A DNA stretch of 53,515 bases, filler included, from Jimgerdemannia flammicorona (GCA_003990765.1; 2 parts of 2 records of this genome joined end to end with filler, not necessarily neighbours in it); one strand, 5' to 3'; positions 1,331 to 34,759 are shown, counted from the whole stretch's first letter. Notes: generated from the letters alone by a model not told the origin. A program made the numbers and translations.

Positions 1331-2844
1331 TGTAAGATGGTTGCTTTTTTAGAGTAACTGTTATATAGTTCTGAAAGAGTTTTTTGGAAGTTCTGAATAT
1401 TCTGGAAGACTGTTTTCTTAAGATCAAGATCAATTTTATATAGAGTATGTCCTCTATACTTATTGATTTCAAGATCAGATTGATATCTCAACCAAAATTC
1501 TTTTTCTGGACTAGTTCTGGATGTTCAGAATTTTTCATATTTTAGGAAGTTCAAGAAACTAAGACCAGCTTAGTTGAATTGGCATATTGCTGTAGATAAT
1601 AACTAATTAGAAAATTTCATAATGGGGTTAGGAGTGGGACCTAACAGGGAGTAGATTTACTTAAGAGTGGTTTGTGGATTATTAAATAAGTTTATTTGTT
1701 ATTTATGATATTGCTATACTAGGAGTAGTTGTATAAAGAGATATTGTGGGAAAGTACTCAGGAGTTGTGTTCAGATTGTTCAAGTATTCAAGTCTGTTTT
1801 AAGTCTAAGATTCTGAGGTCTAGGAGAGGGGGTATTTATACTAGTAAGGAGCTATCTGGACTATACTGAATATGAGTATAGCACTTAGTGCCTTATTGAG
1901 TTAAAATGCAGTCATATAATATAAGTGTGATCTGATATATCAAAGAATTGTCTGACTGCTGAGTTAGTTCACAGTCACATTGTATAAGGCTAATCTAACT
2001 ATACTATGACTGCTAAACTATCTATAGATTTAGATACTATCTGGGTAGTCTTCAATGATATCACCATTGATGACATTATCTCTAGCAAAGTCTGAGCAGT
2101 TTTCTGACCTCTGATATCATCAGTTTCAAAGGTATCATCACTTCTATCTCTTACAAGATTGAGGCTATTCTTGATAGTAGTGGTTGCATAAGGATAATAG
2201 GTCTTGGTTCTCTTTTTTTTTGGACTTCTGGTACATTTGTGAGGACTGGCCATCTTTGTCTAGGGCAAGAGCTCCCAATGTTATGGCTGGGAGTTCAAAT
2301 CTCTTGGAAATGATATTTTCTATAATCTGAGGCAATTTCTAGTAATAATATCTGTCACATAGATGGCTTGAGATTGGTTTCAATAATGTTGACTTTCTTG
2401 AGTTCAGATAAAGCATCTGTTACTCTCTAATGAAGGTGACACAGATAGAGCAAACAGAGTTGTTCAAATGTATTTTGCTTCTACTAAGTAATGAGATTTT
2501 TATATAGTTGTAGTATATCTTGGTCTTGAGTTAATAAGTGCAGTTTATAAACTTTTGATAGATGAGATAGAGTTCTTCTTATCTCAGTTTGAGTTTGGTA
2601 CTTTCAGTTTTCTTTTGTCATAGTACAGTATACCAAACTAGTTATAGAAGTTCAGAGTCAGTCTTATGGTTGTAGTACTTTTTCTAGTATTCTTATATCT
2701 TGGTGGTAGGTTCTCATGCTTACTAGTATATTTGTATAACCAGATGATCTCTTCAGTAACTTGTTTTGTAGTCTTGCATGTGGTTTCCAAATTAGTTCTG
2801 AGGATGACATGCGATTTTGGTGGCTTAGAGGTTGTGCACTTACA
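1331..2844 (-). repeat. 3' LTR of outer family-A element (1514 bp)
   Basis: TGTAAG start, CTTACA end, followed by the PPT complement ACTCTCTCCTTCT. Direct repeat of 22616-24125. Confidence 0.93.
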
Positions 2845-4054
2845 ACTCTCTCCTTCTTAGCTTTCAATGTCCTCATCAAGATCTTCTAATTTGATCTAGT
2901 GTTATTATACCATTTGGATAGTTCTTGTGACTGTATTTGTTGAGGATTTGTTCAACTTTGTATTCTTCTTAGTCATTAATAATGATAGGTATAGGTGGTT
3001 CTGTGGTTCAGTTTAGAAATGTGTCTCAGACTTTCTGAGGTAGTGGTCTGACATAGCTGTCAACTTTGGAAAAGTCTTCCTTAGAGTTCTCGGGTTCTTC
3101 TTTAGATAGGCAGATGGAGATGGCAAAGAGAGGACATTTCTTGGCCAATTTCTTGAGCTGTAGCTTATTGATATGGATGATCTTTGGTCCAGAGTCACTA
3201 GGACTGAGTGGGTCTCTTTTGCCTTATAGTTTGAAGTTGTGGCATCCTTTCTTGATGGTCAGCAAATGGTTTACCTAATCGATCATGGGGTTTTTTTGTT
3301 TTAACCATAGAGTCTCAAGGATGATCTCATTGTTAGGAAGTAGTACAATCTGGAGGGTAACATATACTTGGTAGTCACCAATTCGAAAGGGCAGATTGCA
3401 GACTTCCTTGCTAATAATATGTGAGGTTCCATCAGCTGTGGCAATTGCTTGAGTTTGTTGTACCAGAGAGGTGAAGACCTTGAGTCTGTTGGCCATTTCT
3501 TCATTGATAAAGTTGCCTGAGGTACTACTGTCTATCATAATCTTAACAGGTGCTCAATTGACAAAAGCCTGAAGTTGTAAGAGGGTTGCTTTTTAGAGTA
3601 ACTGTTATGTAGTTCTGGAAGGGTTTTCTGGGAGTTCTGGATATTCTGGAAGACTATTTTCTTATGACCAAGATCAATTTCATATAGAGTATATCCTCTA
3701 TGCTTATTGATTTCAAGATCAGGTTGACGTCTCAACCAAAGTCCTTTTTCAGACTAGTTCTAGATGTTTAGGATTTTTCATATTTCAGGAAGTTCAAGAA
3801 ACTAAGACCAGCTTAGTTGAATTGGCGTATCGCTGCAGACAATACCCAATTAGGAAATTTCATGATAGGGTTAGGAGTGGGACCTAACAGAGAGTGGATT
3901 TACTTAAAAGTGGTTTGTGGATTATTAAATAAGTTTATTTGCTATTTATGATATTGCTATACTAGAAGTAGTTGTGTGAAGGGATATTGTAGGGAAGTGT
4001 TCAGGAATGTTCTTGTGTATTCAAGTCTGAGATTCTGAGGTCTGGAGGAGGGGG

Positions 4055-4062
4055 TATTTATA
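4055..4062 (-). promoter_or_regulatory. Putative LTR TATA box (TATAAATA), conserved in all four family-A LTRs
   Basis: GTATTTATACTAG occurs on the + strand at equivalent positions (~1833, 4054, 18362, 23118), upstream of a conserved AATAAA in element orientation. Confidence 0.6.
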
Positions 4063-4251
4063 CTAGTAAGGGGCTATCTAGACTATACTAGATGTGGATG
4101 TAGCACTAAGTGCTTTGCTGAGTTGGAATGTAGTCACATAGTACAAGTGTGATCTGACATGTCAAGAGATTGTCTGGCTGCTGAGTCAGTTCACAGTTAT
4201 ATCATACAAGACTAATCTAACTATACTATGACTGCTAGGCTATTTATGGGT

Positions 4252-5349
4252 TTAGGCACTATCTGGATAGTCCTCGATGACATCACTATTGATTGCATCA
4301 TCTCTGATAAAGTAGTCATCTAGGAAGAGTGGTTTGCGGATTACTTCTCCTTGTTTGCTGAGGTAATAATACATTGGAACTTCATCTCCATCCCATAAGA
4401 TGGCATTGTCTGTCTCATATGTTGGATAAGGTATTGGTAGGCAAAGGAGGGGTGCATCGTCTTCACTTTCATTGGATTCACTATCTACATACCTTCTATA
4501 GGTTACAGCATTATGAGTCACAGGGTTGTAGTAAGCTGGTGGCTGTGGTTCATGTTGCTTGTACTCGGATGGTGGAGTGGTTGGTTCAATCTCGAGGGTT
4601 GTCTGGAGGTACAGGTTGTGTTCTCTGGTCTCTTCATTGTAGTTGAAGTAATCAGGAGTGAATACAGATTGGTATTCATATCAGTGGTCATTGTCCCAAT
4701 AAGTTTTGTATGCTGTTATGAATTGTTGTAAGTTCATCGGCAAGATTGGCAGTGTGATCAGGGTTGGCAGAGATCCTTGGCTAGAGGTCATGTCGGTGTC
4801 AGAGGGATCATTATCTTCTACTTTATCTTCATCGAAGTGGATTATATTGTAGATATTCTTCATGGTATATCCAACTTGGGGCATTTGCAGGATATGATCA
4901 TTGGGGTGTGGGAAGATTCTGTCTGTGGTTTCGATGTACTCAAGGTACTTGTGGTTGAGTTCTTGTATCATGTCATCAATTTGGCCATAGGACAGGGTAG
5001 TGACCATTTCACTGGTGGTAACTCAGAGGCATGGAATAATGGTACTGTACTCATAGAAGAGTTCTCAATGTTTGCGGGCGATGAGCTTCTGGTGTTGGGA
5101 CATCTGGGTAATATCTGTATTGTGGTAGTACTTGATCATATCTTTCAGGAGGTGGTCAATCTAGTAGTAGCTTGAGATTTGTCCAATTTAGTGGGCCTCG
5201 CTAAGCATGTTTAGAGCATTCCATCAGGCTTCCATGAAGTAGAGGGGTGCTAGGCTATGGATATTCATGAGGGGCAGAGGGAGTGTGGCTCTGTTGACAA
5301 TGGCATTCTAAATGTCAGCATAGATATGGGTATAGATCTCAGTGGTCAT
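4252..5349 (-). pseudogene. LTR(U3)-encoded accessory ORF, ~365 aa, unknown function
   Basis: A single frame runs from ATG 5349 to TAA 4252 (1098 nt) with 7 internal stops. Six of them are sense codons (W,R,R,Q,R,W) in the sister LTR copy. ORF-track fragments 4681..5007 and 4252..4521 lie in this frame. Confidence 0.8.
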
Positions 5350-5637
5350 GTTTGTGTGTTTTGGAAGTTATAGTTGTTGTTTGTTTTGGTTCTCTGATTT
5401 GATACGTCTTGGTGCTCGGTATATATGCATTTGATCCTAATTGGTAAGATTCCATTTGTATAAATCTTGTGTTCTGTGACTTCATATTGACTCAGCTTTG
5501 TGCACTGTAAATTCGGTTTGACTTAGCTTCATGATCCAGCAGGTGATTTCCAGATTGTTCAGAGGTTGCATGTGATTTTAGTAGCTTGTTCAGAGGGTGA
5601 TGTGTAATTTCGGTGGCTTGGAGGTTATACGCTTACA

Positions 5638-5650
5638 ACTCTCCCCTTCT
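5638..5650 (-). other. Polypurine tract of inner family-A element
   Basis: AGAAGGGGAGAGT on the minus strand immediately precedes the 3' LTR. Confidence 0.88.
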
Positions 5651-5850
5651 TAGCTTTCAATGTCCTTATCAGGGCCTTCTAATTTTATTCAGTGATATAG
5701 GAAGAATAGGCTTGCTTTCAGTTTTGCCATTTTTTCCAGAGGGTCAGTATTCTTGTCTTGTTTTACTGAGTTCTTGGTTTGGTTTACAATAATTATAATG
5801 TTCAGGAAAATAATATATAGTATATACAGATAGGTGCGGAGTATTTCGTT

Positions 5851-6543
5851 CTAGTTGTTTAAGGAATCATATTCTTGAACTAGGTTGGTAGCATTCTGGA
5901 GATTGGTCTTGGGTTCCCAGGTTGCATTGTGGATTGGATAACCTTTCCATTTGACAAGGTACTCAGGGTGGCTCTTGTTGCTACATTTATTGAGGATTTG
6001 TTCAACTTCGTATTCTTCTTAGTCATTAATAATGACAGGTGCAGGTGGTTTGATGGTCCAGTTTGGAAATAGCTCATCATCATTCTCATTGTATTGCTTG
6101 AGATATTGAACATTAAAGACTGGGTGAATCTTAATAGTATCCAGTAGTGCCAATTTGTAGGAGGTTGGAGAGACTTGTGCAATAACTTCAAATGGTCCAA
6201 TGAACTTGCTGTTTAGCTTTGTAGATGGTCTGTGCTTGAGGTTATCAACTCAGTATCCTCTGATGTCCAGTAGAACTTTTTCTCCAATATCAAAGGTTTC
6301 TTCTCAGCAGTGTTGGTTAACATACCATGACTATTGTTCTTGAGCTCGTGATAAATTCTCAATAGCAATCTGGCTTAGGTTGCACATTCGAAGTAAGAAT
6401 TCTTCAACAGCTTTGACTGTGGAGGGTTCTTCAGTGGTTCAGATAAGTGTCAAAGGGGTGTTTGGGTTTTGTCCAGTGTTGGTGAAGAATGGGGTCATTC
6501 TGAGAGAGGCTTGCTTGCTATTGTTATAGGCAAACTCAACTGC
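5851..6543 (-). pseudogene. Integrase C-terminus and chromodomain of inner family-A pol
   Basis: Translates as AVEFAYNNSKQASLRMTPFF...FIGPFEVI...IHPVFNVQYLK...EYEVEQILNK...EYLVKWKGYPIHNATWEPKTNLQNA (GPY/F region plus canonical chromodomain). Internal stops present. Confidence 0.92.
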
Positions 6544-6638
6544 CACTGGGAACAGTCATCTCTTTCCAGTACCATTCAGGTTATACAACCTTTGGAAGGC
6601 ACTTTCAACTTCGTTTTCAGCAAAAAGAGACTAACAAC

Positions 6639-8664
6639 ATAGCAACCGACAGACAACCTGAGGTGCGTACTGAGCAGGGCGGCCCTAGTGCTTTCGACTG
6701 GCAGCAGGTGGGGAGGGGGCCAGACCTGGGGGGAGGTATGAGGGGCCTGCTGGTGGGTGGATGTGGAAGGGGTAGAGGAGGTGGTGGAGGATCAGGATCT
6801 GAGAGGGCAAGCTTCGTGGAGATGATGAAGGGGAGACAGCAGGTGTCGGGGCTGGAGGGCTGGCTGAAGAAGGGCAAGGAGACTAAGAAGGTGACGGTGC
6901 CAGGGGGTGCGACTCTTAGAAGGGGGGGCGGTGGAGTGGCAGGAGTAGTGGCTGGGGGGGGTGTGACTGCTGATGGTGTTGGGACTGTCGATCTGGAAAA
7001 AAATCCAGATGTGATGGCTGATGGCGAGACTGAGCGGCTGAGGCTTAGAAGGCAAGGGGACTTGGCAGATGGTGTAACAGGTCTGGCGGTGGCTCCATTA
7101 CTCAAGAAATCGATTTTGGCATTCGTGGTCACACTATGCTTCCGGGGCCTGGTGGTGATGGCGAAAATGGTACTCGGGCTCATCGCTAAGCAGGTGGTGG
7201 GTGCAGCATCTGTGAAGTTTTTGAAGGAACTAGAAGGAGTGGAGGTGGGTTTTGAGGAGGCGGCACCACTGGAGGAGGTGCTGAAGGTTGGATTGGTGGT
7301 TGGGGAGGTATGTGTTCCTATGGCGCAGTGCCTGAAGTGGGACCCCAGGGTGATCCAACTGCTGGTGAAGGGAGTACCAATGGTGACAGTAATGGAGATG
7401 AGGAAGAGGGTTGAGGAGTTCATGGCGGAATATGGCGAGGTGGTAGATATTGGGTTCAGGGTCTGAGAAGGGACCTTGCTCAGGACTGGTGACATGGATG
7501 TGAGAATTTGGCTGGCTGAGAAGGAAGCCACTGGGAAGGCAAGGGATTGGCCTTCAGCGATGGTCTGGGGAGCAATCCTGTATAAGGTGACAAGGGTGAA
7601 GGGGAGTGAGGAAGAGGAGGAGGATTTACTGGAAGCACTCGAAGAGCTGGGGGGGGGCTGTAGAGAGGCGAGCGAAGGCTTGGGAGGCTTTTGAAGAGAT
7701 GACACACTTAGAGGTAGTGGATGAGAAGCGGATTCGAGTGACTAAGGAGCAGTGGGAAAGGGCTCAGGGGTGTAAGAGGCAGAAGGAGCTGCTGGCCAAG
7801 CTGGATAGCAGACCACTGGGGGAGGCGAGCAAGGTGAAGGGCACAGGGGGAGCTGGAGCGAGTGTCTGGGCCGGTGAGGGGGAGGGAAAGGACAAGAAGG
7901 AGGCGAGGGAGGACAAGAAGAAGGCTGGGAAGGACCTGTATGCAGATGGTACACTGGAGGTGTGGGAGGAGGACTGGGTGGGTTCCCCTACCCCTACCCC
8001 TCTCATCAGGCATGGCCCAGCTTCCCGGAATAAGGTGGTGGAAGATGTGCCAATGCAAGGGGCCCAGAGGGTGCAATTTGGAGTTCCAGAGGTGGCGTAT
8101 GGGGGACGGGTGGAGGCGGATGGCGAGGAGGAACTGGTGGATGTCCCGGAAGTATGGGATGAGTCTGTAAGTGCTGGAGCTGATACCACAATGTTGGATG
8201 GAGAGAGGCCGGTGACTCCAGAGGGGAAAGAGGTGGGGAATTTGCTTTGGATGTACCGGATGATAAATAACCTGGTGGCAGAAGAGCTGAGAGAAGTGGA
8301 CTTGCGAGTGATGAGTGATGAGCATTGGGTAGGAATACTGCAGGAGGATGGCATGATGAAGGCATTGAAGGCAGAAATTCTTACAGTGTACCTGGAGGAG
8401 GAAGGATATGAGGTGGATAAGGAGAGGGAGGAGGAGATAGCGGTTGTTGCTGGAGAAAGGGCTGAATACTGCTGGAACAAGCGACATGGACTACAGCTCT
8501 GGCAGGAAGCATGCATTGAATACCGAGAGGAGTTTGAGGAGAAGGCCGATGGTGAGATGAATGAACTACTGGCTGGATTGGAGGCTCAGAGGGCTGAAGA
8601 GGAGGAGGTGGCTGCGGAACATAATTTGGACAGGACACAGGAGGAGATGAGCATAGAGCAGTAG
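6639..8664 (+). pseudogene. LINE copy 1 ORF1 (RRM-like nucleic-acid-binding protein), disrupted
   Basis: Colinear with the intact 640-aa ORF1 at 44125-46047. Start codon decayed ATG>ATA at 6639, W>TGA at 7464-7466, and a frameshift around the G-run at ~7649-7658. Confidence 0.85.
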
Positions 8665-8697
8665 AGGCAGATTGACAACATCACATATATAATTAAT

Positions 8698-11600
8698 ATG
8701 AACAGTACAACCAACATTCTCTCTTTGAACATGAATGGGTTACGGGGCACTTCTCGACGTAGGAACATTTTTACTTGGATGAAGGGATTGGAGGCCGATC
8801 TCTTCCTCTTGCAAGATGTCTAGTGCGAAGATGACTCTGATAGGTTAGAATGGACAAAGGAATGGGGAGGTGCGGCGATTTAGAGGGGCAAGGTTGGGAT
8901 TTTGGTTAGGAAAGGCAGAGGGGAGATACAGGATGTACAGTACTGGGGGGAGAGGCTGGTCTGGGGAGAGTGGATTTGGGTAGGCTGGGAGCCAGTTACA
9001 GTTGGTTCCTGCTACTGCCCTGCAGTACGGGGTGAGAGGGTCGATTGGGTGAAAGGCCTACAGGAGAGTGGATTACTTGTGGAGGCCGGGGTGGATGTGC
9101 TAGGGGGAGATTTCAATATGGTTAGGGATATTCTGCTGGATAGATCAGATGGAGAACGAGGTGCTGGGAGCAGGTGTGGAGGGCTGATGGCATGGGAGGA
9201 AGTAGAGAGGCTGAGTGCACTATTGGATGCTGGAAGGGAGTGCTGGGGGAGTAGGAGAGTCTATACACATTGGGCAGGGGGTCTGGGGACTAGAATCAAT
9301 TGGATTTTGACAGCTTGTTGCTGGGGACTGGATGTTTGGAAATCATTGGAGGTGGAATGGTGTCTATGGTCGGATCACTGGGGGCTTTTGGGACAGGGGT
9401 GCTTTGGGGGAAGTGGGGATGGGCCTGGACATTGGCGCCTCAATTCCTCTTTGTTAGATGACAAGACCCAGTGAGATGAGTGGGCTAAAGACATTCAGCT
9501 GAGGGTGGAGACCTGGAGGCAGGAAGGGGCTGTGGTTAGGACTTGGTGAATGAGGATGAAAGAAATGGCCAGGATCTACTGGAAGGAGGCTGGCAAGGAG
9601 GCAGGGAAGCAGCAAAAACAAAGAGTGTGCTGGGCCTCTGCTAGATTGACGAGGCTCCTGGAGGAGTGGGCAAGGCTGACGATGTTGGAGGGAGAAGAAG
9701 ATTGGAGATTAATGAGGGCGAAGATGGAGGTTGGGGAACTTCAACAGGTGCTGCAGGAGGAGGAAGAGGCAAGGGTACAGAGCTTGGCAGCACAGCTTCA
9801 TTGGCAGGATCTGGAGGAAGGAGAGAGGCCTTCCAAGCTTCTTATAAGGGCCCTTAGGGCGAGGCAGGTCCAGCAATGGTGGGAAGGGGTATTGGACTCT
9901 GATGGTGTACTGGTGCATAGTGTACAGGACATTCTTGGTTCGCTGAAGGAGAGATGGAGTAGATTGTAGAGTGAGGAGGAAGGTGGGGCAGATGCCGTTA
10001 CAATTGAACGAACATTGGAGGATTGGCACCCACCACAAGTCAAAGGGCTAGGGGACCTGGTGATGCCTGTACAGGAGGGTGAGATCCACCAGGTTCTTGC
10101 CACGACAACGTCCAGTATGGCACCTGGGGAGGATTGGCTGCCCTGGGACTTTTGGAAGCAAATGGTTGAAGTCCCAGGGGTGATGGGAGAGATGACAGCA
10201 TTGTGTGACCTTATTCTACAGACAGGTAGATAGGTGGGGGAGCAGGACCTTGGGCTGGTGACACTGCTCTACAAAAACAAAGGAAGGCAGGAGAATTGGA
10301 AGAACTGGCGGCCGATAATGCTACTAGATATGGACAAAAAGTTGGTAACCAAGGTGGTGGTGGCAAGACTACAGAAGGTGGCCCAGCAAGTCGTGGGTGT
10401 TGAGCAGAGGGGATTTGTGGGTGGTCGGCTCATCAGGGATAGCACTGCCTGGGTGCATGGCATCATCGAAGGGGTGAGGGCATGTGGACTGGATGGGCAT
10501 CTAGTTTTCTTGGACCAGGAGAAGGCTTACGACTGGGTGCGGAGAGTCTGGCTGGAGAAAGTTTTGGATAGAATGGGGGTGTCGCTTCAATTCCAGTCAA
10601 CAATGGTCAGCCTACTGGAAGGGAGTAGGGCTGCACTCATGTGTAATAGACATAGAGGGGTAGCATTCCCCTTGGGAAGGGGAGTGCCCCAGGGGGATCC
10701 ATTGTCCCCCATTTTATATGCTCTTTCTCTGGAACCACTTATGGACCGGATTAGGCGGAGGATAGTGGGGCTCTCTGTCTTTGGCATAGGATGGAAGGTT
10801 GGGGCCTTTGCTGATGACATAGTGGTGGGCTTGGGTTCGATTGCTGATGTTGAGAAGCTCAAGAGGACTGTGGAGTGGTATGAGGAGCATTCTGGAGCTA
10901 AGCTGAATTGGCATAAGTGTGAGACAATGGTGCTTGGTAACAGCCTGGTGGGAGGGGAGGTTATAGGAACAATTGTCCCCACCGGTGAAGCAGTGCGGTA
11001 CTTAGATATCTACTTGTCAGTCTATGGGTCAGTTCTGCCCAAGCTTTGGTAGGAGCAGAGGATTGGAATCTGGGAGGAGGCTCTGCAGAGTTGGGGGGGA
11101 AGACATTTTTCTCTGGTAGGGTGGGTCTTGATTTTGAATATCTACTGGCTGCCAAAGTTGTGGTATCTGGTGTATCACCTGGACTTCCCAGCCTGGGTAG
11201 TGAAGAGATTGATGAAGTCGGCGAAGGGATGGATTTGGGCTGGCAGGCGGAGTCAGATTAGTTGGGAGACCCTGTCCCTACCAGTGGCAAGAGGTGGTCT
11301 TGAGCTGGTTGACTTCCCGAAATGGTTACACTGCTTGAGAGCGTGGTGGCTGAAGAGGGCGGTGGAGTTGAGAGGAGGTGGATGGGTTCCTCTGTTACAG
11401 AAGATATGGGAGAGGCAGACATCGCCAAGGGGCTCAACTGGTGATCTCCTCTCCTTGGTTGGGCTTCGGAACACTGCCCAACTACGGTATAAAGAATTTT
11501 GGTAGAGAATTGCAGAAGGAGCGTACCGCATCAGCATTCGTTGGCAGGGGAATGAAGGTGAGGAGGATTGGGACCTGGTGATGTGGAGATGGGACCATAT

Positions 11601-12374
11601 ACTGTTAGGTGGTGCTCCTTTAGTTGAGTTCGACATTAGTGAGAGAATAGAATGCCAAAGGGGACCAGGCCAGGATCTGTGGCCTAGCAGTTGGCAAGGA
11701 GTTGGAATTGGCAAGGAGTGGAACTAGCGTAGTGTTTGGACCTGGAGTGCTGCAGTGAGAGCATGGCTGCCACCAAAGTACTGGGTGGTCTGGTGGCACA
11801 TGCTGTGGAGGAATGTTATGCTCAATTTTCACTTGGGGCACCTGGTTGTAGGGAGCTGCTTCGACTGTGAGAAGTGCCATAATGTAGGGCAGGAGGGGGG
11901 TTATGTACAGACGCCAGAACATTGGCTAAGAGAGTGTGAGGTGTTGGGGGAATTTTGGCGGACAATTGGGGATCGCTTAGGGGTATGGGGTAGGAGTGAT
12001 GGGGTACAGGGGCGATGGGAGGACTTGTGGGTTAGATTGGTAGGGGGAATAGGGATGAAGTGGCTCACTTTAGGTTGGGCTTTGGCAATTTGGGTGGGGT
12101 TGGCCAGTCATTGGCTATTTGTTTTTGAGGATGGGAGAAGGCAGAGCTTGGAGGACTGGCTGCTGTGATGGCATAGGCTTATGGAAGATACCTTAACAGG
12201 CTGGTGGCTGGGTTGGGGGATGCAGAGTAGTTGGAGGCACCACTTGGTAGAGGAAATCTGTGGGCAAAGTGGGGGGAGAGTGGGGGTTGTTGGTGAAAGG
12301 GTGATTTTCATTCGTGAGGAGGTAGGGAGGGGCCCCCTGGTGGGGATTGGATAGTTGGTTGGATTGATGTATAA
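8698..12374 (+). pseudogene. LINE copy 1 ORF2 (APE endonuclease, reverse transcriptase, C-terminal CCHC), disrupted
   Basis: APE motifs SLNMNGL, LLQD, GGDFN and SDH. RT motifs APGED, WRPIML, FLDQEKAYD, GVPQGDPLSP and AFADD. C-terminal CEKC...EHWLREC. Many TGG/CAG-derived stops. End coordinate approximate. Confidence 0.92.
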
Positions 12375-12413
12375 TTATTCATAGACTGGTAATAAAGGCG
12401 GAGTCCAAGTGAC

Positions 12414-12470
<57 letters not shown>

Positions 12471-12476
<6 letters not shown>

Positions 12477-15400
12477 AACTGCAGTGAGGTGTTCATGCCA
12501 GTCATCTTGTTTGTAGGAAACATAGTTCCTTAGCATTTGTTCCAGAGTTCGGTTCATTCTTTCAGTTTGGCCATCAGTTTCTGAGTGAAAGGTTGTGGAT
12601 AGTATAAGTTTTGTTCCAAGGTGTGTATGGAGGGCTTTTCAAAAATGGCTGGTGAATTTTGGGTCTCAGTTACTAACGATGATCTTGGGAAGACCGTGAT
12701 AGTGGAAGATGTTGTCAAACAAGAGTGTGGCTATGTCTGGTGCTGTTGCAGTAGTGGTAGTAGGCACAAAATGGGCTTGTTTGCTGAGATAGTCTATAAA
12801 GACAACAATTGCATCTTTCCTATTCCTGGTTCAGGGTAGTTGTACAATGAAGTCCATAGAGATTTGTTCCCAATTTGTAGAAGGTACTGAGATAGGGTAA
12901 AGTAAGCTGGGTTTTGCTAGTGTTGAGGACTTGTTTCATTGGCAGGCATCACAGGAAGTGATGTAGGTTTTGAGCTGATCTGCCATATGGGGCCAATAGA
13001 AGTTTCAAGAGATAACTTCATAACATTTATCAAATCCTAAATGTCTAGCTGTAGGGGCATCATGACATTCAAATAGGATAGTCCTTCAGAGGTCTTGGTT
13101 GTTTGGGACATATAGTCTGTCTTTGTAGTAGATAGCATTATCCTTTAGTTGGTATTGATAATACTGTGTATACTTGTCAGCATCATCACTATTCAGGATT
13201 TCTCGCAGTGCTTGAGCTTTCTTATCATTGGCACATGCTGTGATAATTTGTTCCATGATGGAGTTTGTAACCAAGGTGAGAGTTTGAATAACCTCTTCAA
13301 TTGGTGGTCTGGAGATTGCATCAGCAACAATATTTTCCTTGCCAGAGTGGTACTGGATTTCATAGTCAAAGTTGGTGAGGACTTTCATCCATCTGGCTTG
13401 CTTTCAAGAAAGGGTAGCCTATATCTTGATATTGACTAATGATTTGTGATCAGTCAATATAGTGAAGTGTGCTCCTTCTAGGTAGGGTCACCATTTGATC
13501 AGAGTATCTATGATGGCTAGCATTTTCTTCTTGTGGGTTACATAGTTAATTTCAGTATCATTGAACTTGTGGGAGTGATAGGCCACAGGGTGTCCTTCTT
13601 GCATGAGTACTGCTCCAAGGGCTAGGTCAGAGGCATTAGTGGTAACTTCATATGGCAGTGCAGGGTTTGCCGCTTGAAGTACTGGAGTGGTTATCAGGGC
13701 ATTCTTTAGTGCTTGAAAGGTAGTATCTTGCTCAGGTCCCTAAGTTACAAGATTGTTGAAGTCTTTCTCTTGTTTTATGGTCCAGGGTTGCTCTTGTTTC
13801 TTGCTATGCTTGGTCATTTGAGTGAGGGCAGTAGCGATTTTAGCAAAGTTGACAACAAATTGCCTGTAATAGTTTGCTAATCCCAGGAATGACTGGAGGT
13901 CTTTCAGCTTCTTGGGTCTGGGCCAATACTTAATTGCAGAGATTTTGCTAGGGTCCACTTTGATTTCATTTGGAGTGACAATGTGTCCAAGGAATTGAAT
14001 TTCTTTCAGGAGAAATTTGCACTTGCTGAGTTTTGCAAAGAGTCAGTTTTCTTGGAGTTTCAGTAGTACTAGTTCAAGGTGTTCAAGATGTTCCTCTAGG
14101 GTTTTGCTGAAGACTAGGATGTCATCAATGTAGACAACAATGAATTTGTCCAGGTATGGATGCAGAATGGTATTCATCAGTGTCGGGAAGATTGCTGGAG
14201 CATTAGTTAAGCCAAAGGGCATAACCAGGAACTCAAAGTGTCCATAGCAAGTTTGGAAAGCTGTCTTGTAGATGTCTTCTTCTTTCATAGCAATTTGTCA
14301 ATAGCCATTTCATAGGTCAAAAGAGCTCATGAATTGTGGGTTGGTAAGTCTATCAAATATTTCATTGATCCTCAGTAGTGGGCAACAGTTCTTGATGGTC
14401 TGTTCATTGAGATCGCGGTAGTCAATGCACATTCGCAGGTCTCCTCCTTTTTTCACAACAAAGAGGACTGGTGCGCCATAGGGTGATACACTGGGTCTGA
14501 TGAATCCTTGTTCTAGGAGTTCATCAATTTCTTTCTTGAGTGCATCGATTTCTCTCAGAGACATATGGTAGATTGACTTGAAGGCTGGTTTGGCATCTGG
14601 GATAGTCTTGATGGCATGGTCTACCACTCGTTTAGGAGGTAGGCCTTTTGGGAGTTTCTTTGGAAATATGTCTTGAAATTTCTGGAGTAGTGGTCTGACA
14701 TGGCTGTCAACTTTGGAAAAATCTTCTTCAGAGTTCTCAGGTTCTCCTTTGGATGGGCGGATGGAGATGGCAAAGAGAGGGCATTTCTTGGCCAATTTCT
14801 TAAGTTGTAGCTTGTTGATGTGGGTAATCTTTGGTCCAGGGTCACTAGAATTAAGTGGATCCTTCTTGTCTTGCAGTTTGAAGTTGTGGCATCCTTTCTT
14901 GATAGTCAGAGAATGGTTTACCCAATCGATCATAGGGTTCTCTTGTTTTAACCATAGAGTCCCAAGGATGATTTCATTGTTAGGAAGTGGTACAATTTGG
15001 AGGATAACATGTACTCAGTAGTTGCCAATTCGGAAGGGTAGATTGTGGACTTCTTTGCTAATAATATGTGAGGTTCCATCAGCTGTAGCAACTGCTTGAG
15101 TTTGTTGTACTGGAGAGGTGAAGACCTTAAGTCTGTTAGCTGTTTCTTTACTGATGAAGTTGCCAGAGGCACCACTGTCTATCATAATCTTAACAGATGC
15201 TCAGTTGACAAAAGCCTTAAGAGTGAGCAGTTTGTCTGATCCAATGGTGGTGATTTCAGTTGTAGGAGCTTTCCTTCTATTGGTTCTTCTTTGTGCTAGT
15301 TTATTGACATAAGAGAAGCAATCATCAATCATTCGAGAAGAGTACATTCTAATGTCATGAGGGCATCGGCCACTTGGTACATATCCATCTTCAATCTTCT

Positions 15401-17845
15401 TGTAGAATTGTTCTTCTTTACTCATGGTAGGTTGAGTTGGGGCCTTGTTTGATGAGCCAAATCCTTTGGATCCTTGGATGGTGGGCAGTAGTTCAGGGAC
15501 TTCCTTGACTGTCAGGGTTGACTTGATTTTTTCAAATAGGATCTGGGCAATGCAGAAACCAATAGAGATCTTGAAGGGTGTCTAACTGTGGTTTCAGATG
15601 AGGACAATAATTTCGCCTGTATAATCCTCATCAATGACTCCTCCTTCTACTGAGAGTCCTTTCAATACTAGGCTGCTGTGATAGCATATTCTTCCAACAT
15701 GTCCTTCAGGAATTTGGATACTGATTCCTGTGTAGACTTATTTGACTTCTCAGTTGGAAACTGTAGCTTCTTTGGCTGCATACAGGTTATATCCAGCTGC
15801 TTTCTGACTTCCTTTGATTGGGGCCTTAGCAGTTTATCTTAACTTGACAAAGTTCAGTGTTCTGGTGGTCAGATTGTTGAGGTGGTGCAGAGTGGTAACA
15901 GTTGCTCTTGTTGCTGTTCGAGATTTTCAGTTAGGGCAGGCACTGGCCATGTGTCCTGTCTTTTGGTAATAGAAGCATGCTCCACTTCTTCAAAGTTCAT
16001 TCCTTTCACCTTCAGTAAGTTTCTTGAAGGTACTTGGCTGGATAGGTTCGTGATTTCTAGGTGTCCAAGAGGTGGATGTGGAGGGAGCTTGGGATGCTTC
16101 ATGCTTGGGTTCTTCTTTCTTAGTCCAAGTCTTTTCCTTATTGTTGAATTGTCTTCAGGGCAGAATTGGTCCAGCTGTTAGGATTCACTTGACCATAGTC
16201 TTGATTCTTGCCAGGCACCATTGTTGGTGATCACAACCAACTAGGCAGCCTTGTTCTTGGATTTTTCTAGTAAGCCATTCAGGTAGGGCATCAAATAAAT
16301 GGTCTGCTCTTATACCATTTCATGCTTCATCGTTGGCGATATATCCTAGGCCAACAGTATTTAGGAGTGACTTGAGTTTTGTACAGAAGATTTCAAATTC
16401 TTCTTTGCCATATACATCAAATTTGAGGTTGCGGAGTTTTACTCGAGATTCAGCGATCATGGTTTTGCTGTAGTATTGAGCAATCATAAGTTGTTTGAGT
16501 CTAGGGGCTGCAGGATGGGCTCCATATCCTGGGGTATTGTTTGCTGCATTCTGAGCAACTACTACAGGTTGGGTATCCCATGTGAGGGGTTTTTCAGAAA
16601 AGGTTCGCCACCATTCTTCGGCAGGTCCTCAGAAGAATATAACAACTCAGCAGACATAGGCTGTAGTGATAGCAAAGAGTTGTTCCAGTGTGTGGTCTTG
16701 ATTGTTTGTCAGAATGCAGTCAGCAACTCGCTCATTAGTCCATTGATTGGCTTTAAAGTTGGTGTCAACTATACTAATGAAGCTTTGGACTTCTTGTGTA
16801 GTACTATTGAAGGTAGGTAGGCTCAGATTTTTTGTAGGTCAGGTCTGTTCAGCTAAGGCAGTAATGGTTGCTGCCATTATAGCTACTTGGGCTGTGAGAT
16901 CAAGAATCTGTTGGTTCACTATATTATTTGCTGGAGGCAGTTGGACTGCTGGTAGTGGTGTTACTGGTACTACTTGAGGTACTGGTGTAGAGTGTGATGG
17001 GGTTCTTTGGGTCTGTGTAAATTGCTGGAGTAGTAGTTATGGGTCTGGAGTGAGGGCTTGATAGATAACTGTTTGTTGCTGTGTAAGTATATTCTGTCCT
17101 GATGGAGGTACTTCTCCTTCAGTGATATATCTGGAATCGAATTCACTGAGATACTCCTCCTCTTCTTCAGTTTGGTCCCCATGTAATTGAGTTTACTTGG
17201 CATCAAAGTAGATAGAATCAGTTGTATATCTGATTTTGGATGGACTTAATTCAAAGTCAAGTTCAGGTTCGGTATTGGTTTCAGATTCAGGTAGAGCTAT
17301 AGCAGGGCCTGCTTCAGGTTTAGGGTTAGGTAGTTGATGAAGGATTTCTCTTGCTTCTTCTTTAAGAATATGGTGGGCCTTACTGTTCTGGAATTGATAG
17401 TATAATGCGGTCTTAGTCCTGGTATGGTGAAAGTTGGTAGAGTTGAGCCACTTGGCTACAGAGGCTTGGGCTTCATGAGGAACTAAGGCTAGGAAGACTG
17501 CTGCTGGTTGTCCTAGGTCACTCAGATTTGTAGAGCTGACAAAACTCTTGTTGAGAAGAGTAAAGAAGGCTTCAATAAGACCTTCTTCATCTTGACTTGC
17601 TGGGTGTAGTGCAAGGAGTTCGGTGAATAGAGTTTCATCTATTTGCTGGTTTAACTGAAGTACTTCTTTCTTTGAATGAAGTTTATCCCACTTGTTGCAG
17701 GTGTGGAGGTCAAATTGTTCTTGTATATCAGGTTCAATTCTCTCCAGATTGTCAGATGGTTCAGGATAAATTCCAGTTCAAAGGTTGGGCTTTATACCAA
17801 CTTGTAGGAATTCTCAGAAGGGTTTGTAGTGGGGTGAGGAAGCAT
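12471..17845 (-). pseudogene. Inner family-A gag-pol (gag with CCHC knuckle, dUTPase, protease, RT, RNase H, integrase N-terminus/core), disrupted
   Basis: Knuckle ACFYYQKTGHMASACP (~15935-15985). PR MIDSGASGNF (DSG 15171-15179). [43 protein letters not shown]...TDHKSL. IN ECHD...HLG...SCDACQ and [20 protein letters not shown]. Start position approximate. Confidence 0.94.
15450..15857 (-). pseudogene. dut: dUTPase domain between gag zinc knuckle and protease (inner family-A copy)
   Basis: All five trimeric dUTPase motifs are recognisable: AAGYNLYA, (R>H)SSL, GGVIDEDYTGEI, GF(R>C)IAQ, (R>Q)GSKGFGSS. Confidence 0.92.
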
Positions 17846-17869
17846 CTTGAAGCAGAATTGAATTATAAA

Positions 17870-17881
17870 CTGCTGCTACCA
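17870..17881 (-). other. Primer-binding site, probably initiator tRNA-Met
   Basis: TGGTAGCAGCAG lies 3 nt inside the 5' LTR. TGGTAGC is complementary to the GCUACCA-3' end typical of tRNA-iMet. Confidence 0.75.
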
Positions 17882-17884
17882 AGT

Positions 17885-19944
17885 TGTAAGAGGGTTGCTT
17901 TTTAGGGTAACCATTATGTAGTTCTGGAAGGATTTTCTGGGAGTTCTGGATATTCTGGAAGACCGTTTTCTTGTAGCCAAGATCAATTTCATATGGAGTA
18001 CATCCTCTATGCTTATTGATTTCAAGATCAGGTTGACATCTCAACCAAAGTCCTTTTTTGGACTAGTTCTGAATGTTCGGAATTTTCTATATTTCAGGAA
18101 GTTCAAGAAACTAAGACCAGCTTAGTTGAATTGGTGTATCGCTGCAGACAATACCCAATTAGGAAATTTCATGATGGGGTTAGAAGTGGGACCTAACAGA
18201 GAGTGGATTTACTTAAGAGTGATTTGTGGGTTATTAAATAGGTTTATTCGCTATTCATGATATTGCTATACTAGGAGTAGTTGTGTGAAGAGATATTGTA
18301 GGAAGTGTTCAGGAATATTCTTGTATATTCAAGTCTGAGATTCTGAGGTCTGGGGGAGGGGGTATTTATACTAGTGAGGGGCTATCTGGACTATGCTAGA
18401 TGTGGATGTAGCACTAAGTGCTTTGCTGAGTCAGAATACAGTTACATAGTACAAGTGTGATCTAATATGTCAAGAGATTGTCTGGCTGCTAAGTTAGTTT
18501 ACAGTTACATCAAATAAGGCTAATCTAACTATACTGTGACTGCTAGGCTATTTATGGGTTTAGGCACTGTCTGGGTAGTCCTTGATGACATCACCATCAA
18601 TTGCATCATCTCTGATGAAGTAGTCATCTAGGAAGAGTGGTTTGTGGATTACTTCTCCTTGTTTGCTGAGGTAATAATACATTGGAACTTTGTCTCTATT
18701 CCACAAGGTGGCATCATCTGTCTCATATGCTGGATAAGGTGTTGGTGGGCGAAGGAGAGGTGCATTGTCTTTACTTTCATTGGATTCGCTGTCTGCATAC
18801 CTTCTGTAGGTTACAGCACTATGAGTCACAGGGTTGTAGTAAGCTGGTGGCTATGGTTCATGTTGCTTGTACTCGGGTGGTAGAGTGGTTGGTTTGATCT
18901 CGAGGGTTGTCTGAAGGTACAGATTGTGTTCTCTGGTCTCTTCATTATAGTTAAAGTAATCAGGGGTAAATGCAGGTTAGTATTCGTGCCAGTGGTCATT
19001 GTCCCAATAAGTCTCATATGCTGTTATGAATTGTTGTAAATTTATCAGCAAGGTTGGCGGTGTGATCAGGGTTGGCAGAGATCCTTGGCTAGAGGTCATA
19101 TCAGTGTCAGAGGGATCATTGTCTTCTGCTTCGTCTTCATCGAAGTGGATTATATTGTAGATGTCCTTCATGGTATATCCAACTTGGGGCATTTGCAGGA
19201 TATGATCATTGGGGTGTAGAAAGGTTCTGTCTGTGGTTTTGACATACTCGAGGTACTTGTGGTTGAGTTCTTGTATTATGTCATCAATTTGGCCATAGAA
19301 CAGAGTAGTGACCATTTCACTGGTAGTAACTCAGAGGCAAGGAATAATGGTACTATACTTATAGAAGAGTTCTCGATGTTTGTGGGTGATGAGTTCTGGT
19401 GTTGGGACATCTGAATAATGTCTGTATCATAGTGGTGCTCGATCATATCTTCCAAGAGGCAGCCAATCTGATAGTAGCTTGAGATTTGTCCAATTCGGTG
19501 AGCCTTGCTAAGCATGTTCAGAGCATTCCATCGGGCTTCCACGAAGTAGAGGGGTACTAGGCTATGGATATTCATGAGGGGTAGAGGGGGTGTGGCTCCA
19601 TTGACAATGGCATTCCAAATGTCAGCATGGATACAGGTATAGATCTCAGTAGTCATGTTTGTGTGTTTTGGAAGTTGTGGTTACTGTTTGTTTTGGTTCT
19701 CTGATTCAATGTATCTTGGTGCTCAGTATATATGCATTTGATCCTGATTGATAAGATTCCATTTATATAAATCTTGTGTTCTGTGACTTCATATTGACTC
19801 AGCTTTGTGTACTGTGACTTCAGTTTGACTCAGCTTCATGATCAAGCAGGTGATTTCCAGATTGTTCAGAGGTTGTATGTGATTTCAGTGGCTTGTTCAG
19901 AGGGTGACATGTAATTTCAGTGACTTGGAGGTTGTGCACTTACA
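17885..19944 (-). repeat. 5' LTR of inner family-A element (2060 bp)
   Basis: TGTAAG...CTTACA termini. Direct repeat of 3576-5637, with differences overwhelmingly transitions. Confidence 0.95.
18560..19656 (-). pseudogene. Second copy of the LTR-encoded accessory ORF
   Basis: MTTEIYTCIHADIWNAIVNG...DYPDSA*. One 1-nt deletion near 19394; its stops are mostly at different codons from the 3' LTR copy. Confidence 0.8.
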
Positions 19945-20176
19945 GAAGTATAAGCAGTTTGTCTGATCCAATGATGGTAATTTCAGTTGTAGGAGCTTTC
20001 TTTCTATTGGTTCTTCTTTGAGCCAGTTCATTGACACAAGAGAAGCAATCATCAATCATTTGGGAAGAGTACATTCCAATGCCATGGGGGCATTGGCCAC
20101 TTGGTACATATCTATCTTTAATTTTCTTGTAGAATTGTTCTTCTTTATTCATGGTAGGTTGGACTGGGGCCTTGTT

Positions 20177-20584
20177 TGATGAGCCAAATCCTTTGGATCC
20201 TTAGATAGTAGGCAGTAGTTCAGAGACTTCCTTGACTATCAGAGTTGACTCAATTTTTTTGAATAGGATCTGAGCAATGCAGAAACCAATAGAGATCTTG
20301 AAGGATATCCAACTATGGTTTCAGATGAGGACAATAATTTCACCTGTGTAATCCTCATCAACGACTCCTCCTTCTACTGAGAGTTCTTTCAATGATAGGC
20401 TATTGTGACAATATATCCTTCCAACATATCCTTCAGAGATTTGGATACTGATTTCTGTATAGACTTGCTTAACTTCTTAGTTGGAAACTATAGCTTCTTC
20501 AGCTGCATATAGATCATATCTAGCTGCTTTTTAACTTCCTTTGGTTGGGGCCTTAGCAGTTTGTCTTAACTTGACAAAGTCCAG
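20177..20584 (-). pseudogene. dut: dUTPase domain of outer family-A copy
   Basis: Colinear with 15450-15857. Reads AARYDLYA, GGVVDEDYTGEI, CIAQ, GSKGFGSS. Confidence 0.9.
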
Positions 20585-22615
20585 TATTCTGGTAGTTAGG
20601 TTATTGAGATGGTGCAGAGTAGTAACAGTTGCTTGTATTGCTGTTCAGGGTTTTCAGTTGGGGCAGATACTGATCATATATCCTATCTTTTAGCAATAGA
20701 AGTATGCTCCACTTCTTTGAAGTTCATTCCTTTCTCTTTCAGTGAGTTTCTTAAAGATACTTGGCTGGGTGAATTTATGATTTCTGAGTGTCTATGAGGT
20801 GGATATTGAGGGAGCTTGGGATGCTTCATGCTTGGGTTCTTCTTTCTTGGTCTAAGTCTTTTCTTTGTTGTTAAATTGTCTTCAGGGCAGAATTGGTCCA
20901 GCTGTTAGGATTCACTTGACCATAGTCTTGATTCTTGTCAGGCACCATTGTTGGTGATCACAACTAACTAGGCAGCCTTGTTCTCAGATTTTTCTAGTAA
21001 GCCATTCAGGCAGTATGTTGAATAAATGGTCTGCTCTTGTACTATTTCATGCTTTGTCATTGGCAATATATCCTAGGCCAACAGTATTCAGGAGTGACTC
21101 AAGTTTTGTACAGAAAGTTTCAAATTCTTCCTTACTATATATGTATATCAAATTTAAGGTTATAGAGTTTTACTCAAGATTCAGCAATCATAGTTTTGCT
21201 ACAGTATTGAGCAATCATGAGTTGTTTCAGTCCAGGGGCTGCAGGATGGGCTCCATATTCTGGGGCATTATTTGCTATATTCTGAGTAACTACTACAGAT
21301 TGGGTGTCCCATATGAGGGGTTTTTCAGGAAGGGTTTGCCACCATTCTTCAGCAGGTCCTTGGAAGAATATAACAACTCAGCAAACATAGGCTATAGTTG
21401 TAGTGAAGAGTTATTCCAGAGTATGGTCTTGATTGTTTATCAGAAGGTAGTTAGCAACTCACTCATTTGTCTATTGATTGGCTTCAAAGTTGGTGTCAAC
21501 TATACTAATAAAGCTTTGGACTTCTTGTACAGTACTATTAAAGGTAGGTAGGCTCAGATTTTTGGTAGGTTGGGTCTGTTCAGCTAAGGTAGTAATGGTT
21601 GCTATCATTATTGCTACTTGGGCTGTGAGGTCTAGAATCTGTTGGTTCACCATGTTGTTTACTGGAGGTGGTTGGGCTACTGGTAGTAGTGTTACTGGTA
21701 CTATTTGAGATACTGGTGCAGCATGTGAGGGTATTCTTTGAGTCTGTATAAGTTACTGGAATAATAGTTGTGAGTCTGGAGTGAGGGCTCAATAGATAGC
21801 TGTTTGTTGCTGTATAGGTGTGTTCTGTCCTGATGGAGGTGTGTCTCCTTTGGTGGTGTATTCGGAATTGAATTCACTGAGATACTCCTCCTTCTCTTCA
21901 GTTTGGTCCTGGTATAGTTGGGTTTGCTCAGCATCAAAGTAGACAGAATCAGTTATATATCTGATTTCAGATAGACTTAATTCAAAGTCAAGTTCCAGTC
22001 TAGTGTTGGTTTCAGGTTCAGGTAGAGCTGTAGTAGAGCCTGCTTCTGGTTCAGGGTTAGGCTGTTGATGAAGAGTTTCTCTTGCTTCTTCCTTAAGAAT
22101 ATAGCAGGCCTTGCTGTTCTGAAAACAGTAGTATAATGTAGTCTTGGTCCTGGTATAGTGAAAATTAGTAGAGTTGAGCCACTTGGCTACAGAGGCTTGG
22201 ACTTCATGAGGAACTAAGGCTAGAAAGACTACTGATGGTTGTTCTAGGTTGCTTGGATTTGTGAAGCTGACAAAACTCTTGTTGAGAAGAGTAAAGAAGA
22301 CTTCTATAAGACCTTCTTTACCTTGACTTGCTGGGTATAGTGCAAGAAGTTCAGTGTATAGAGTTTCACCTATCTGCTGATTTAACTGGAGTATTTCTTT
22401 CTTTAAATGAAGTTTATCCCACTTGTTGTAGGTATGGAGGTCAAATTGTCCTTATGCATCAGGTTCAATTCTCTCTAGATTGTCAGATGGTTCAAGATAA
22501 ATTCCAGTTCAGAGGTTGGGCTTTATACCAACTTGTAGGAATTCTCAGAGGAGTTTGTAATAGGGTAAGAAAGCATCTTAAAGAGGAATTGGATTGTAAA
22601 CTACTACTACTAAGT

Positions 22616-24125
22616 TGTAAGAGGGTTGCTTTTTTAGAGTAACCATTACATAGTTCTGGAAGGATTTTCTGGAAGTTCTGGATATTCTGGAAGACTATTT
22701 TCTTAAGGTCAAGATCAATTTCATATGGAGTACATCCTCTATACTTATTGATTTCAAGATTGAATTGACATCTCAACCAAAGTCCTTTTTCTGGACTAGT
22801 TCTGAATGTTCAGAATTTTCCATATTTCAGGAAGTTTAAGAAACTAAGACCAGCTTAGTTGAATCAGCATATCACTGTAGACAATACCCAATTAGGAAAT
22901 TTCGTGATGGGGTTAGGAGTGGGACCTAATAGGGAGCAGATTTACTTAAGAGTGATTTATAGGTTATTAAATAGGTTTATTTGCTATTCATGATATTACT
23001 ATACTAGGAGTAGTTGTGTAAAGAGATATTGTGGGGAAGTGCTCAGGAGTTGTATTTGGATTGTTTAAGTGTTTAAGTCTGTTTTAAGTCTGAGATTCTG
23101 AGGTCTAGGGAAGGGAGTATTTATACTAGTGAGGAGCTATCTGGACTATACTGAATATGGGTGTAGTACTTAGTGCCTTACTGAGTCAGAATACAGTCAC
23201 ATAGTATAAGTGTGATCTGACATATCAAAGGATTATCTGACTGCTGAGTTAGTTCACAGTTACATCATATAAGGCTAATCTAACTATACTATAACTGCTA
23301 AGCTATCTATAGATTTAGACACTGTCTGGATAGTCTTTGATGACATCACCATTGATGACATCATTTTTGGCAAAGTCTGAGCAGTTTTCTGACTTCTGAC
23401 ATCATCAGTTTCAAAGATATCATCACTTCTATCTCTTGCAAGATTGAGGCTATCTTTGGTGGCAGTGGTTGCATAAGGATAACAGGTCTTGATTCTCTTT
23501 TTTGTTGGACTTCTGGTACATTTGCGAGGACTGGTCATTCTTGTCTAGGGTGAGGGCTCTCAATGTCATGGCTGGGGTTTCAAACCTCTCAGAAATGATA
23601 TTTTCTGTAATCTGAGACAATTTCTAGTAGTAATATCTATCATATAGATGGCTTGAGATTGGTTTCAACAATGTTGGCTTTCTCGAGTTCAGATGAAGCA
23701 TCCATCACTTTCCAACAGAGGTGATACAGATAGAGCAAACAGAGTTATTCAAATGTATTTTACTTCTACTAAGTAATGAGGTCTTTGTATAGTTGTGATG
23801 TATCTTGGTCTTGAGTTAATAAGTATAGGTTATGAACCTTTGATCGATGAGATAGAGTTCTTCTTATCTCAGTTTGAGTTTGGTACTTTCAGTTTCCTTT
23901 TATCATAGTACAGTATATCAAACTAGTTATAGAGATTCAGAGTCAGTCCTGTGGTTGTAGTACTTTTTCTGATATTCTTGTGTCTTGGTGGTAGATTCTT
24001 GTACTTGCTGGCATATTTTATATAACCAGATGATCTCTTCAGTAACTTGTAGTCTTGCATGTGGTTTCCAAATTGGTTCTGAGGATGATATGTGATTTTG
24101 ATGGCTTGGAGGTTGTACACTTATA
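22616..24125 (-). repeat. 5' LTR of outer family-A element (1510 bp) with decayed coding-like U3 cassette
   Basis: Direct repeat of 1331-2844. Adjacent PBS decayed to TAGTAGTAGTAG (22601-22612). Followed by the TSD CTGGG. Confidence 0.92.
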
Positions 24126-24130
24126 CTGGG

Positions 24131-26708: not shown

Positions 26709-26808
26709 NNNNNNNNNNNNNNNNNNNNNNNNNNNNNNNNNNNNNNNNNNNNTTAATTAATTAANNNNNNNNNNNNNNNNNNNNNNNNNNNNNNNNNNNN
26801 NNNNNNNN
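26709..26808. other. Artificial contig linker/gap (N44-TTAATTAATTAA-N44)
   Basis: Exactly 100 nt, symmetric, with a central 12-mer that has stops in all six frames. Confidence 0.97.
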
Positions 26809-34495: not shown

Positions 34496-34561
34496 GGGAA
34501 CCCCGGAGTTTGTTTGACGGCCACAAGCGGGAACCTCGGAGTTTGTTTGACTGTCACAAGC
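34496..34561. repeat. 33-bp tandem duplication
   Basis: GGGAACCCCGGAGTTTGTTTGACGGCCACAAGC followed by GGGAACCTCGGAGTTTGTTTGACTGTCACAAGC (3 mismatches). Confidence 0.9.
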
Positions 34562-34759
34562 CCGCCCATCTCTTGCGCGACCGTCACCCCGACCACGAAC
34601 GTAAGTCGAACTCCATTTGAACAGAGATCGCTCATTTACAAACGGGTAAATATCAACTAGCAGTCGGCGGAAATTCCGTTAAAGGAGCTTGGGAGACCCT
34701 GCATGGCACCCCTTCTCTTACCGTATCATTTCCTGTTCTTGACTTCCAGCTCCGACCTC

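Follow-up and report, generated by a model that had tools for sequence, protein, structure and literature searches.

Why do two nested LTR retrotransposons of Jimgerdemannia flammicorona (GCA_003990765.1) carry LTRs that agree at both ends and have nothing in common between them, and do the middles hold genes? The locus lies in a stretch of 53,515 nucleotides, filler included, which was analysed as a whole and is called the window below. The initial annotation had interpreted the LTR middles as interchangeable accessory genes, kept in a fixed slot and exchanged by template switching. We compared the four LTRs with one another and with public protein and contig collections.

Nested chromoviruses of the window

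LTRs were paired by self-BLAST of the window and their exact ends were set by inspection of the LTR termini. Two elements were recognized, nested and each with its own LTR pair (Table 1), both being Ty3/gypsy chromoviruses located on the minus strand. In the self-BLAST the outer LTRs (1331-2842 vs 22616-24123) showed 88.4% identity and the inner ones (3572-5637 vs 17881-19944) 90.6%. The LTR termini have the form TGTAAG...CTTACA, a purine run (polypurine tract) is placed directly upstream of the 3' LTR, and TSDs of 5 bp surround both elements.

Table 1. Coordinates of the features of both elements in the window
Feature	Position	Strand	Basis
Outer element, TSD CTGGG	1326-1330; second copy 24126-24130	.	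inspection of ends
Outer element, 3' LTR (element sense), 1,512 nt, TG..CA-type termini	1331-2842	-	self-BLAST, end inspection
Outer element, 5' LTR, 1,510 nt	22616-24125	-	self-BLAST, refined end
Outer internal region, 3' piece	2843-3570	-	self-BLAST; polypurine tract adjoins LTR
Outer internal region, gag and dUTPase side	19950-22615	-	continuation of 2843-3570
Inner element, TSD GAAGT	3571-3575; second copy 19945-19949	.	inspection of ends
Inner element, 3' LTR, 2,062 nt	3576-5637	-	self-BLAST, refined end
Inner element, 5' LTR, 2,060 nt	17885-19944	-	self-BLAST, refined end
Inner internal region: dUTPase, aspartyl protease, RT, RNase H, integrase (H2C2, rve), SH3_Tf2-1, chromodomain (element order)	5638-17884	-	Pfam
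LINE inside inner integrase region: endonuclease and RT, 3' poly(A) run, TSD AACTCAAC	6541-12473	+	Pfam, end inspection
TATAAA in all four LTRs, putative promoter	4057-4062; 18365-18370; 1835-1840; 23120-23125	-	motif position
AATAAA in all four LTRs, putative poly(A) signal	3934-3939; 18243-18248; 1691-1696; 22976-22981	-	motif position
Putative U3 ORF, 3' LTR copy: 251 codons and stop; one private in-frame stop at 4681-4683	4252-5007	-	shared-stop comparison
Putative U3 ORF, 5' LTR copy: 251 codons and stop; two private in-frame stops	18560-19315	-	shared-stop comparison
Frame-matched interval preceding the ORF, no shared stop over ~153 codons	5026-5481	-	shared-stop comparison
Outer middle (putative U3), ~676-685 nt, edge depending on where homology resumes; 2084-2795 of the initial annotation	2093-2768; sister copy ~23380-24050	-	no match to inner middle
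ORF stub in outer LTR: last ~20 codons and stop	2030-2092; sister copy 23315-23377	-	alignment with C-termini of ORF and P0001

A six-frame Pfam scan of 5638-17880 revealed on the minus strand dUTPase (3.8e-29), RVT_1 (3.8e-32), RNase H (7.5e-28), Integrase_H2C2 (1e-16), SH3_Tf2-1 (3.7e-15) and PF00385 Chromo (1.2e-15). Protease, RVT_1, RT_RNaseH, Integrase_H2C2 and rve follow one another in this order between the two LTRs, with Chromo at the 3' end of pol and SH3_Tf2-1 just before it. On the grounds of this minus-strand domain order and the Chromo domain, the inner element is a Ty3/gypsy chromovirus; it is autonomous in type and interrupted by a LINE. The stretch upstream of dUTPase, without Pfam match, is presumed to be gag. 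A search with pol brought up named chromoviruses of plants and charophytes, 37-55% identical, and other matches of which the best reached 50-53%. The primer-binding site matched no tRNA, and a self-priming check, in which the complement of this site was sought in the LTR with purine/pyrimidine coding, gave scattered matches only.

The dUTPase domain (PF00692) is found at ~15450-15830 of the window (-), just upstream of the protease, and the homologous part of the outer element falls within 19950-22615; a dUTPase is also carried by some of the closest metagenome pol relatives (P0067, P0090). An RT noticed on the plus strand of the inner element is not chromoviral and belongs to the nested LINE. 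The latter contains Exo_endo_phos and RVT_1, ends in a long poly(A) run, has a GC content of ~52% with a very strong G>C skew of 0.35-0.47, and has an inverted copy, ~70% identical, at ~40.8-45.7 kb.

The outer element is devoid of PR-RT-RH-IN. Its internal region (2843-3570 and 19950-22615) matches only inner 14659-17880 and short pieces from near the 3' end: outer 2916-3020 corresponds to inner 5966-6070, an integrase-tail remnant, and further on there is sequence matching inner 14659-15221. It is a pol-deleted, non-autonomous derivative, presumably mobilised in trans, and the deletion of pol could also postdate its insertion.

Outside the two elements, 24131-39000 was translated in six frames and inspected by eye; the minus strand displayed a run of leucine-rich-repeat-like units of the type LAKSL...N.IGD..., and the plus strand BED/hAT-like motifs. 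Runs of N occupy 26709-26752 and 26765-26808, and direct and inverted repeat pairs of 74-83% identity were noticed at 30532-30994 / 31063-31528, 28213-28495 / 51160-51509 and 50136-50468 / 52656-52992.

LTRs with shared ends and unrelated middles

Outer and inner LTRs align in the self-BLAST over 1331-2083 / 3576-4305 (84.8%) and 2795-2905 / 5588-5698 (82%). In element sense, the common parts amount to ~75 nt at the LTR start and ~740 nt at its end. The initial annotation had reported colinearity over the first ~730-750 bp and the last ~50 bp; the shared ends are real, and their order has to be reversed, the elements being on the minus strand according to Pfam. The ~730-750 bp constitute the 3' part of the LTR (putative promoter, R and U5) and the ~50 bp the presumed start of U3, where homology reaches as far as LTR position ~75. 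When the shared 3' part was aligned for all four LTRs, 43 of the 738 ungapped columns proved to be fixed differences (5.8%), 36 of them transitions, and there is one 21-nt indel.

Between the shared parts lie unrelated middles of ~676-685 nt (outer) vs ~1,260 nt (inner). Neither blastn (word size 7) nor tblastx gave a significant match between outer and inner middles in any of the four copy pairs; the compared sequences included the short shared flanks, and all matches fell there. The two LTRs of an element carry the same middle, so both middles have passed through reverse transcription. Thus far the initial annotation described the locus well: its claims that the ends are common and the middles do not align, and that each middle occurs in both LTRs of its element, so that both variants transposed, were borne out by self-BLAST and by the LTR-pair alignment. 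The possibility it had raised against itself, namely that the middles are diverged homologues or indel derivatives of one another, did not materialize, each LTR having its own unrelated segment. As the elements are at most ~6% apart wherever they can be aligned and unrelated over ~680 vs ~1,260 nt, the middles differ by replacement, not by gradual divergence or a simple indel. The LTR centre (putative U3) tolerates wholesale replacement, with the ~75 nt start and the ~740 nt end retained.

Our comparison of LTR middles concerns the two variants found within this window. Two public runs, belonging to two studies, have contigs over every bin of both middles, so both LTR types occur in other data sets, in the form of many diverged fragments. 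Among the joints listed for the run contigs, those seen connect the homologous parts that outer and inner LTRs have in common, with no sign of further cassettes.

Copies of one LTR differ almost exclusively by transitions, which account for 189/193 substitutions in the inner pair and 163/169 in the outer (352/362 overall), with only 2 and 6 gap columns, respectively. In 207 of 352 cases the mutated C stands before A; by site, CpG is hit most often and CpT least. CpG sites mutated in one copy only stand to unmutated ones as 39:24, giving an estimate of ~45% of CpG sites mutated per copy. This decay is RIP-like or of deamination type, and in its RIP-like character it looks fungal. Such transitions create stops without frameshift, and a stop private to one LTR copy is therefore most simply explained as post-insertional. 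The signature extends across all four LTRs (1331-5637, 17885-24125) and makes dating by LTR identity unreliable here.

Reading frames of the inner and outer middles

Openness was assessed by reading the two LTR copies of an element in register and distinguishing stops common to both from private ones, with 1,000 alignment-column shuffles as the null. In frame 0 of the inner element the region LTR 154-1384 contains a single shared stop, at 613, and beyond 1384 there are 14 more in ~680 nt; 12 of the 15 private stops of this frame lie within LTR 154-1384. The other two sense frames have 31 and 48 shared stops, with longest open intervals of 198 and 153 nt. The shared-stop-free interval of 771 nt (LTR 613-1384) exceeds those of all 1,000 shuffles (median 308, 95th percentile 465, maximum 693), and inside it an ORF starts with ATG. 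All in-frame stops of this ORF are private to one LTR copy and, given the prevalence of transitions described above, fit decay after insertion.

Among 5.8 billion proteins the ORF has one relative, P0001, an intact protein of 247 aa from a 998-nt ENA contig. The two align end-to-end with 60% identity and 80% positives, Met against Met, and both finish with ...YPDS(A/I). When a profile was run against 1.84 billion cluster representatives, the one match besides P0001 was P0002 (E 9.8e-07), which was rejected as low-complexity (9 matching stretches, the best to profile positions 135-182). None of 59 candidates proved to be a shorter homologue at E <= 0.001. Related loci were also sought by protein patterns in JGI metagenome contigs and IMG/VR, where 0 of 191 and 0 of 124 pattern matches, respectively, were confirmed, and a degenerate pattern for the LTR start had no match in metagenome contigs.

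The encoded protein would be very acidic (pI 4.05), with Asp, Pro, Tyr, Thr and Glu as the commonest residues. It matched no Pfam family (E up to 10), no PDB sequence (E up to 1) and nothing in Rfam, and by Pfam and PDB sequence it displayed no homology to known retroviral accessory proteins. An AlphaFold2 model based on a 3-row alignment had a mean pLDDT of 32. The ESM Atlas has an entry identical in sequence to P0001, whose model is poor (pLDDT 0.39); it gave no usable feature match, and all structure rows were at TM <= 0.30. Judging from the reading frame and its homologue, the inner middle holds a protein-coding gene, ancestrally open, conserved and of no known family. That the frame stays open, with the same ends, across 40% amino-acid divergence argues for selection on it.

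Upstream of the ORF and in its frame, shared stops are absent from a further 459 nt, a length slightly short of the 95% shuffle bound; a TGA common to both copies (5023-5025) separates this interval from the ORF Met. It could represent an N-terminal extension or a second ORF. With ~45% of CpG sites mutated per copy, it is plausible that this TGA hides a codon mutated in both copies, although P0001 begins at the downstream Met.

The outer middle is of a different kind. Shared stops occur in all six frames of the outer LTR pair (whole LTR: 40, 22 and 23 in the sense frames, 22, 44 and 27 in the antisense ones), and the longest intervals free of them, 261 nt sense and 276 nt antisense, are to be compared with a shuffle median of 243 nt. 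Neither a Pfam match above noise nor an Rfam family was found for this middle, and the search for tandem repeats in the LTRs yielded one trivial 20-nt array only. Its composition, A>T and C>G, has the same bias as the element sense strand, so that a retroelement RNA of the same orientation could have been its source. The initial annotation had seen here a decayed second gene and had named the lack of an ORF as fatal to its reading; comparison of the outer LTR copies gave no ORF, and the peptide segments quoted as remains of one gene stem from different frames. The outer middle is non-coding filler, a derived replacement rather than a second gene.

Immediately adjacent to this filler, the outer LTRs retain ...RDNVINGDIIEDYPDSI* in register with the end of the inner ORF. 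The common final ~17-20 codons before a shared stop, which had been noticed initially, are thus confirmed by alignment of the stub with the C-terminus of the inner ORF. P0001, although far more divergent, shares this C-terminus, so the ORF including its end predates the split between the outer and inner LTR types. The case for loss and not gain is built on the stub and the age of the P0001 C-terminus: the outer LTR type would most simply be derived, with the upstream region and ORF codons 1 to ~231 replaced. Of the proposed variable accessory genes, there remains one middle that appears to be coding; the idea of unrelated payloads fails on an outer middle without open frame at insertion, and the stub suggests that one gene was lost or replaced, not that two were exchanged. 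The lineage without pol apparently also manages without the ORF.

A putative U3 gene and its alternatives

All four LTRs have TATAAA and AATAAA at matching places, the former ~190 nt past the ORF stop and the latter another ~120-145 nt on; TATA-like motifs are also present in the variable parts, not all of them common even to the two copies of one element. Since TATAAA and AATAAA are kept in every LTR and lie downstream of the ORF, the inner ORF would sit in U3. If transcription starts further upstream, it would instead belong to a long R region.

Such a gene could be maintained in the following way. The ORF would be located downstream of the ~75-nt LTR start, presumably the end recognized by integrase, and upstream of TATAAA, R and U5. 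As part of U3 it would be copied from the RNA 3' end into both LTRs, giving two gene copies per insertion, and on genomic RNA it would form the 3'-terminal cistron, presumably expressed, by analogy to retroviral U3 genes, from a subgenomic or spliced RNA or from a promoter internal to the LTR. We propose that the conserved start serves integration and the conserved 3' block transcription and strand transfer, so that only the LTR centre would be free to change. The outer LTR would have arisen from the ORF-bearing type when ~1,260 nt were swapped for ~680 nt of unrelated non-coding sequence, presumably by recombination or by template switching in reverse transcription, with a stub of ~20 codons left behind. 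The gene itself may be of benefit to the element.

Genes in or overlapping U3 are well known from retroviruses: sag of MMTV, nef of primate lentiviruses and bel/bet of foamy viruses, which are expressed via subgenomic or spliced RNA or an internal promoter. The resemblance concerns a coding frame in U3 (here placed by motifs), duplicated in the provirus and 3'-terminal on genomic RNA. The difference is that Pfam detects no relationship between these genes and the ORF described here, and that the carrier here is an env-less chromovirus.

Additional ORFs in LTR retrotransposons, among them Retrosat2 ORF0, upstream of gag-pol (PMC3485330), bdelloid ORF3 (PMC5408684) and plant aORFs (PMC7264820), have been described from internal regions. 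Like the present ORF, they are lineage-restricted, without known function and faster-evolving than pol; they are internal, whereas the ORF reported here is wholly inside the LTR (PMC7264820, PMC3485330, PMC5408684). A phrase search of the plant aORF review brought up no ORF within an LTR (PMC7264820), and in the main texts of open-access papers we found no chromovirus or fungal element described with a gene housed entirely in its LTR.

The closest parallel is crapaud from the Podospora anserina complex, whose LTR subfamilies differ in U3 upstream of the TATA box and keep R/U5 conserved; recombination between co-packaged RNAs with selection on promoter function was proposed by its authors (PMC10787394). 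Common to both cases are a chromodomain Ty3/gypsy element, RIP-type mutation and sibling subfamilies that differ almost only in U3 (PMC10787394). Also in our elements variation is confined to the putative U3, the 3' ~740 nt showing 5.8% fixed differences vs a middle without similarity. However, crapaud LTRs measure 339-443 bp with a variable part of <200 bp, and no ORF is described in the available text (PMC10787394), whereas here the variable part spans 0.7-1.3 kb and one version apparently encodes a conserved protein of 251 codons, of which the other keeps a stub.

Taken together, the data are probably best read as an autonomous chromovirus that carries an accessory gene in U3 and a non-autonomous sibling from which this gene was lost by replacement. 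The crapaud precedent, with U3-only variation upstream of TATA and conserved R/U5 in a fungal chromovirus, as documented (PMC10787394), invites the view that the locus exemplifies ordinary diversification of U3 into promoter or enhancer subfamilies, the inner ORF being incidental and without protein function; the lack of a known family and the poor fold prediction would suit it. We consider it improbable, as an open interval longer than in any of 1,000 shuffles and an intact homologue, 60% identical with the same start and stop, are hard to reconcile with an unselected frame, and the short, non-coding variable part of crapaud (in the text available, PMC10787394) is no match for the lengths found here. 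The inner middle might also be a host gene or mobile element captured by an ancestral short LTR, the outer type then being nearer to the ancestor. Capture of extra ORFs by LTR retrotransposons is known (PMC5408684), and none of the retroelement proteins in Pfam is related to the ORF. This explanation seems very improbable to us: the LTRs do not derive from one another by an indel, each having its own unrelated segment, the last ~20 codons in the outer LTR together with the divergent P0001 make the whole ORF older than the split, and no host-like homologue appeared among the 5.8 billion and 1.84 billion proteins searched.

The initially proposed slot, in which sibling lineages hold different accessory genes swapped by template switching and both middles are coding cargo, accounts for the conserved ends with wholly non-homologous middles, for the apparently true coding nature of the inner one and for the fact that both versions were reverse-transcribed and are covered by contigs of two other data sets; even the element-typical sense-strand composition of the filler would agree with it. 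It predicts an open frame in each middle, and only the inner is open (771 nt). The outer was closed in all six frames at insertion, its longest open interval being near the shuffle median, it has no family match in Pfam or Rfam, and the truncated gene end next to it signifies loss, not the swap of a whole cassette. With, moreover, two variants only in the window, we give this proposal little credence. Returning to the U3 accessory gene lost by replacement, a bolder version of it would make the ORF a true accessory gene of an env-less chromovirus, such as an acidic transactivator or a genome-defence antagonist, needed by or useful to autonomous copies and dispensable for those mobilised in trans, with the U3 centre as a recombination-tolerant slot for which further cassettes, some of them coding, exist elsewhere. 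We offer it tentatively and regard it as unlikely in this full form.

LTRs are usually treated as non-coding control regions and masked in annotation, and genes borne by them are thus rarely recorded; this may explain why a single relative of this protein, P0001, was found among billions of predicted proteins. The present case also calls for caution in LTR-based family classification and dating, the LTRs being dissimilar over half their length in elements at most ~6% apart elsewhere. A sibling lineage in which the gene was replaced and which still spread is a natural comparison for what the gene is needed for. If the reading given here is true, a chromovirus gene housed in U3 extends a retrovirus-like strategy, that of a 3' accessory gene duplicated with the LTR, to plain LTR retrotransposons.
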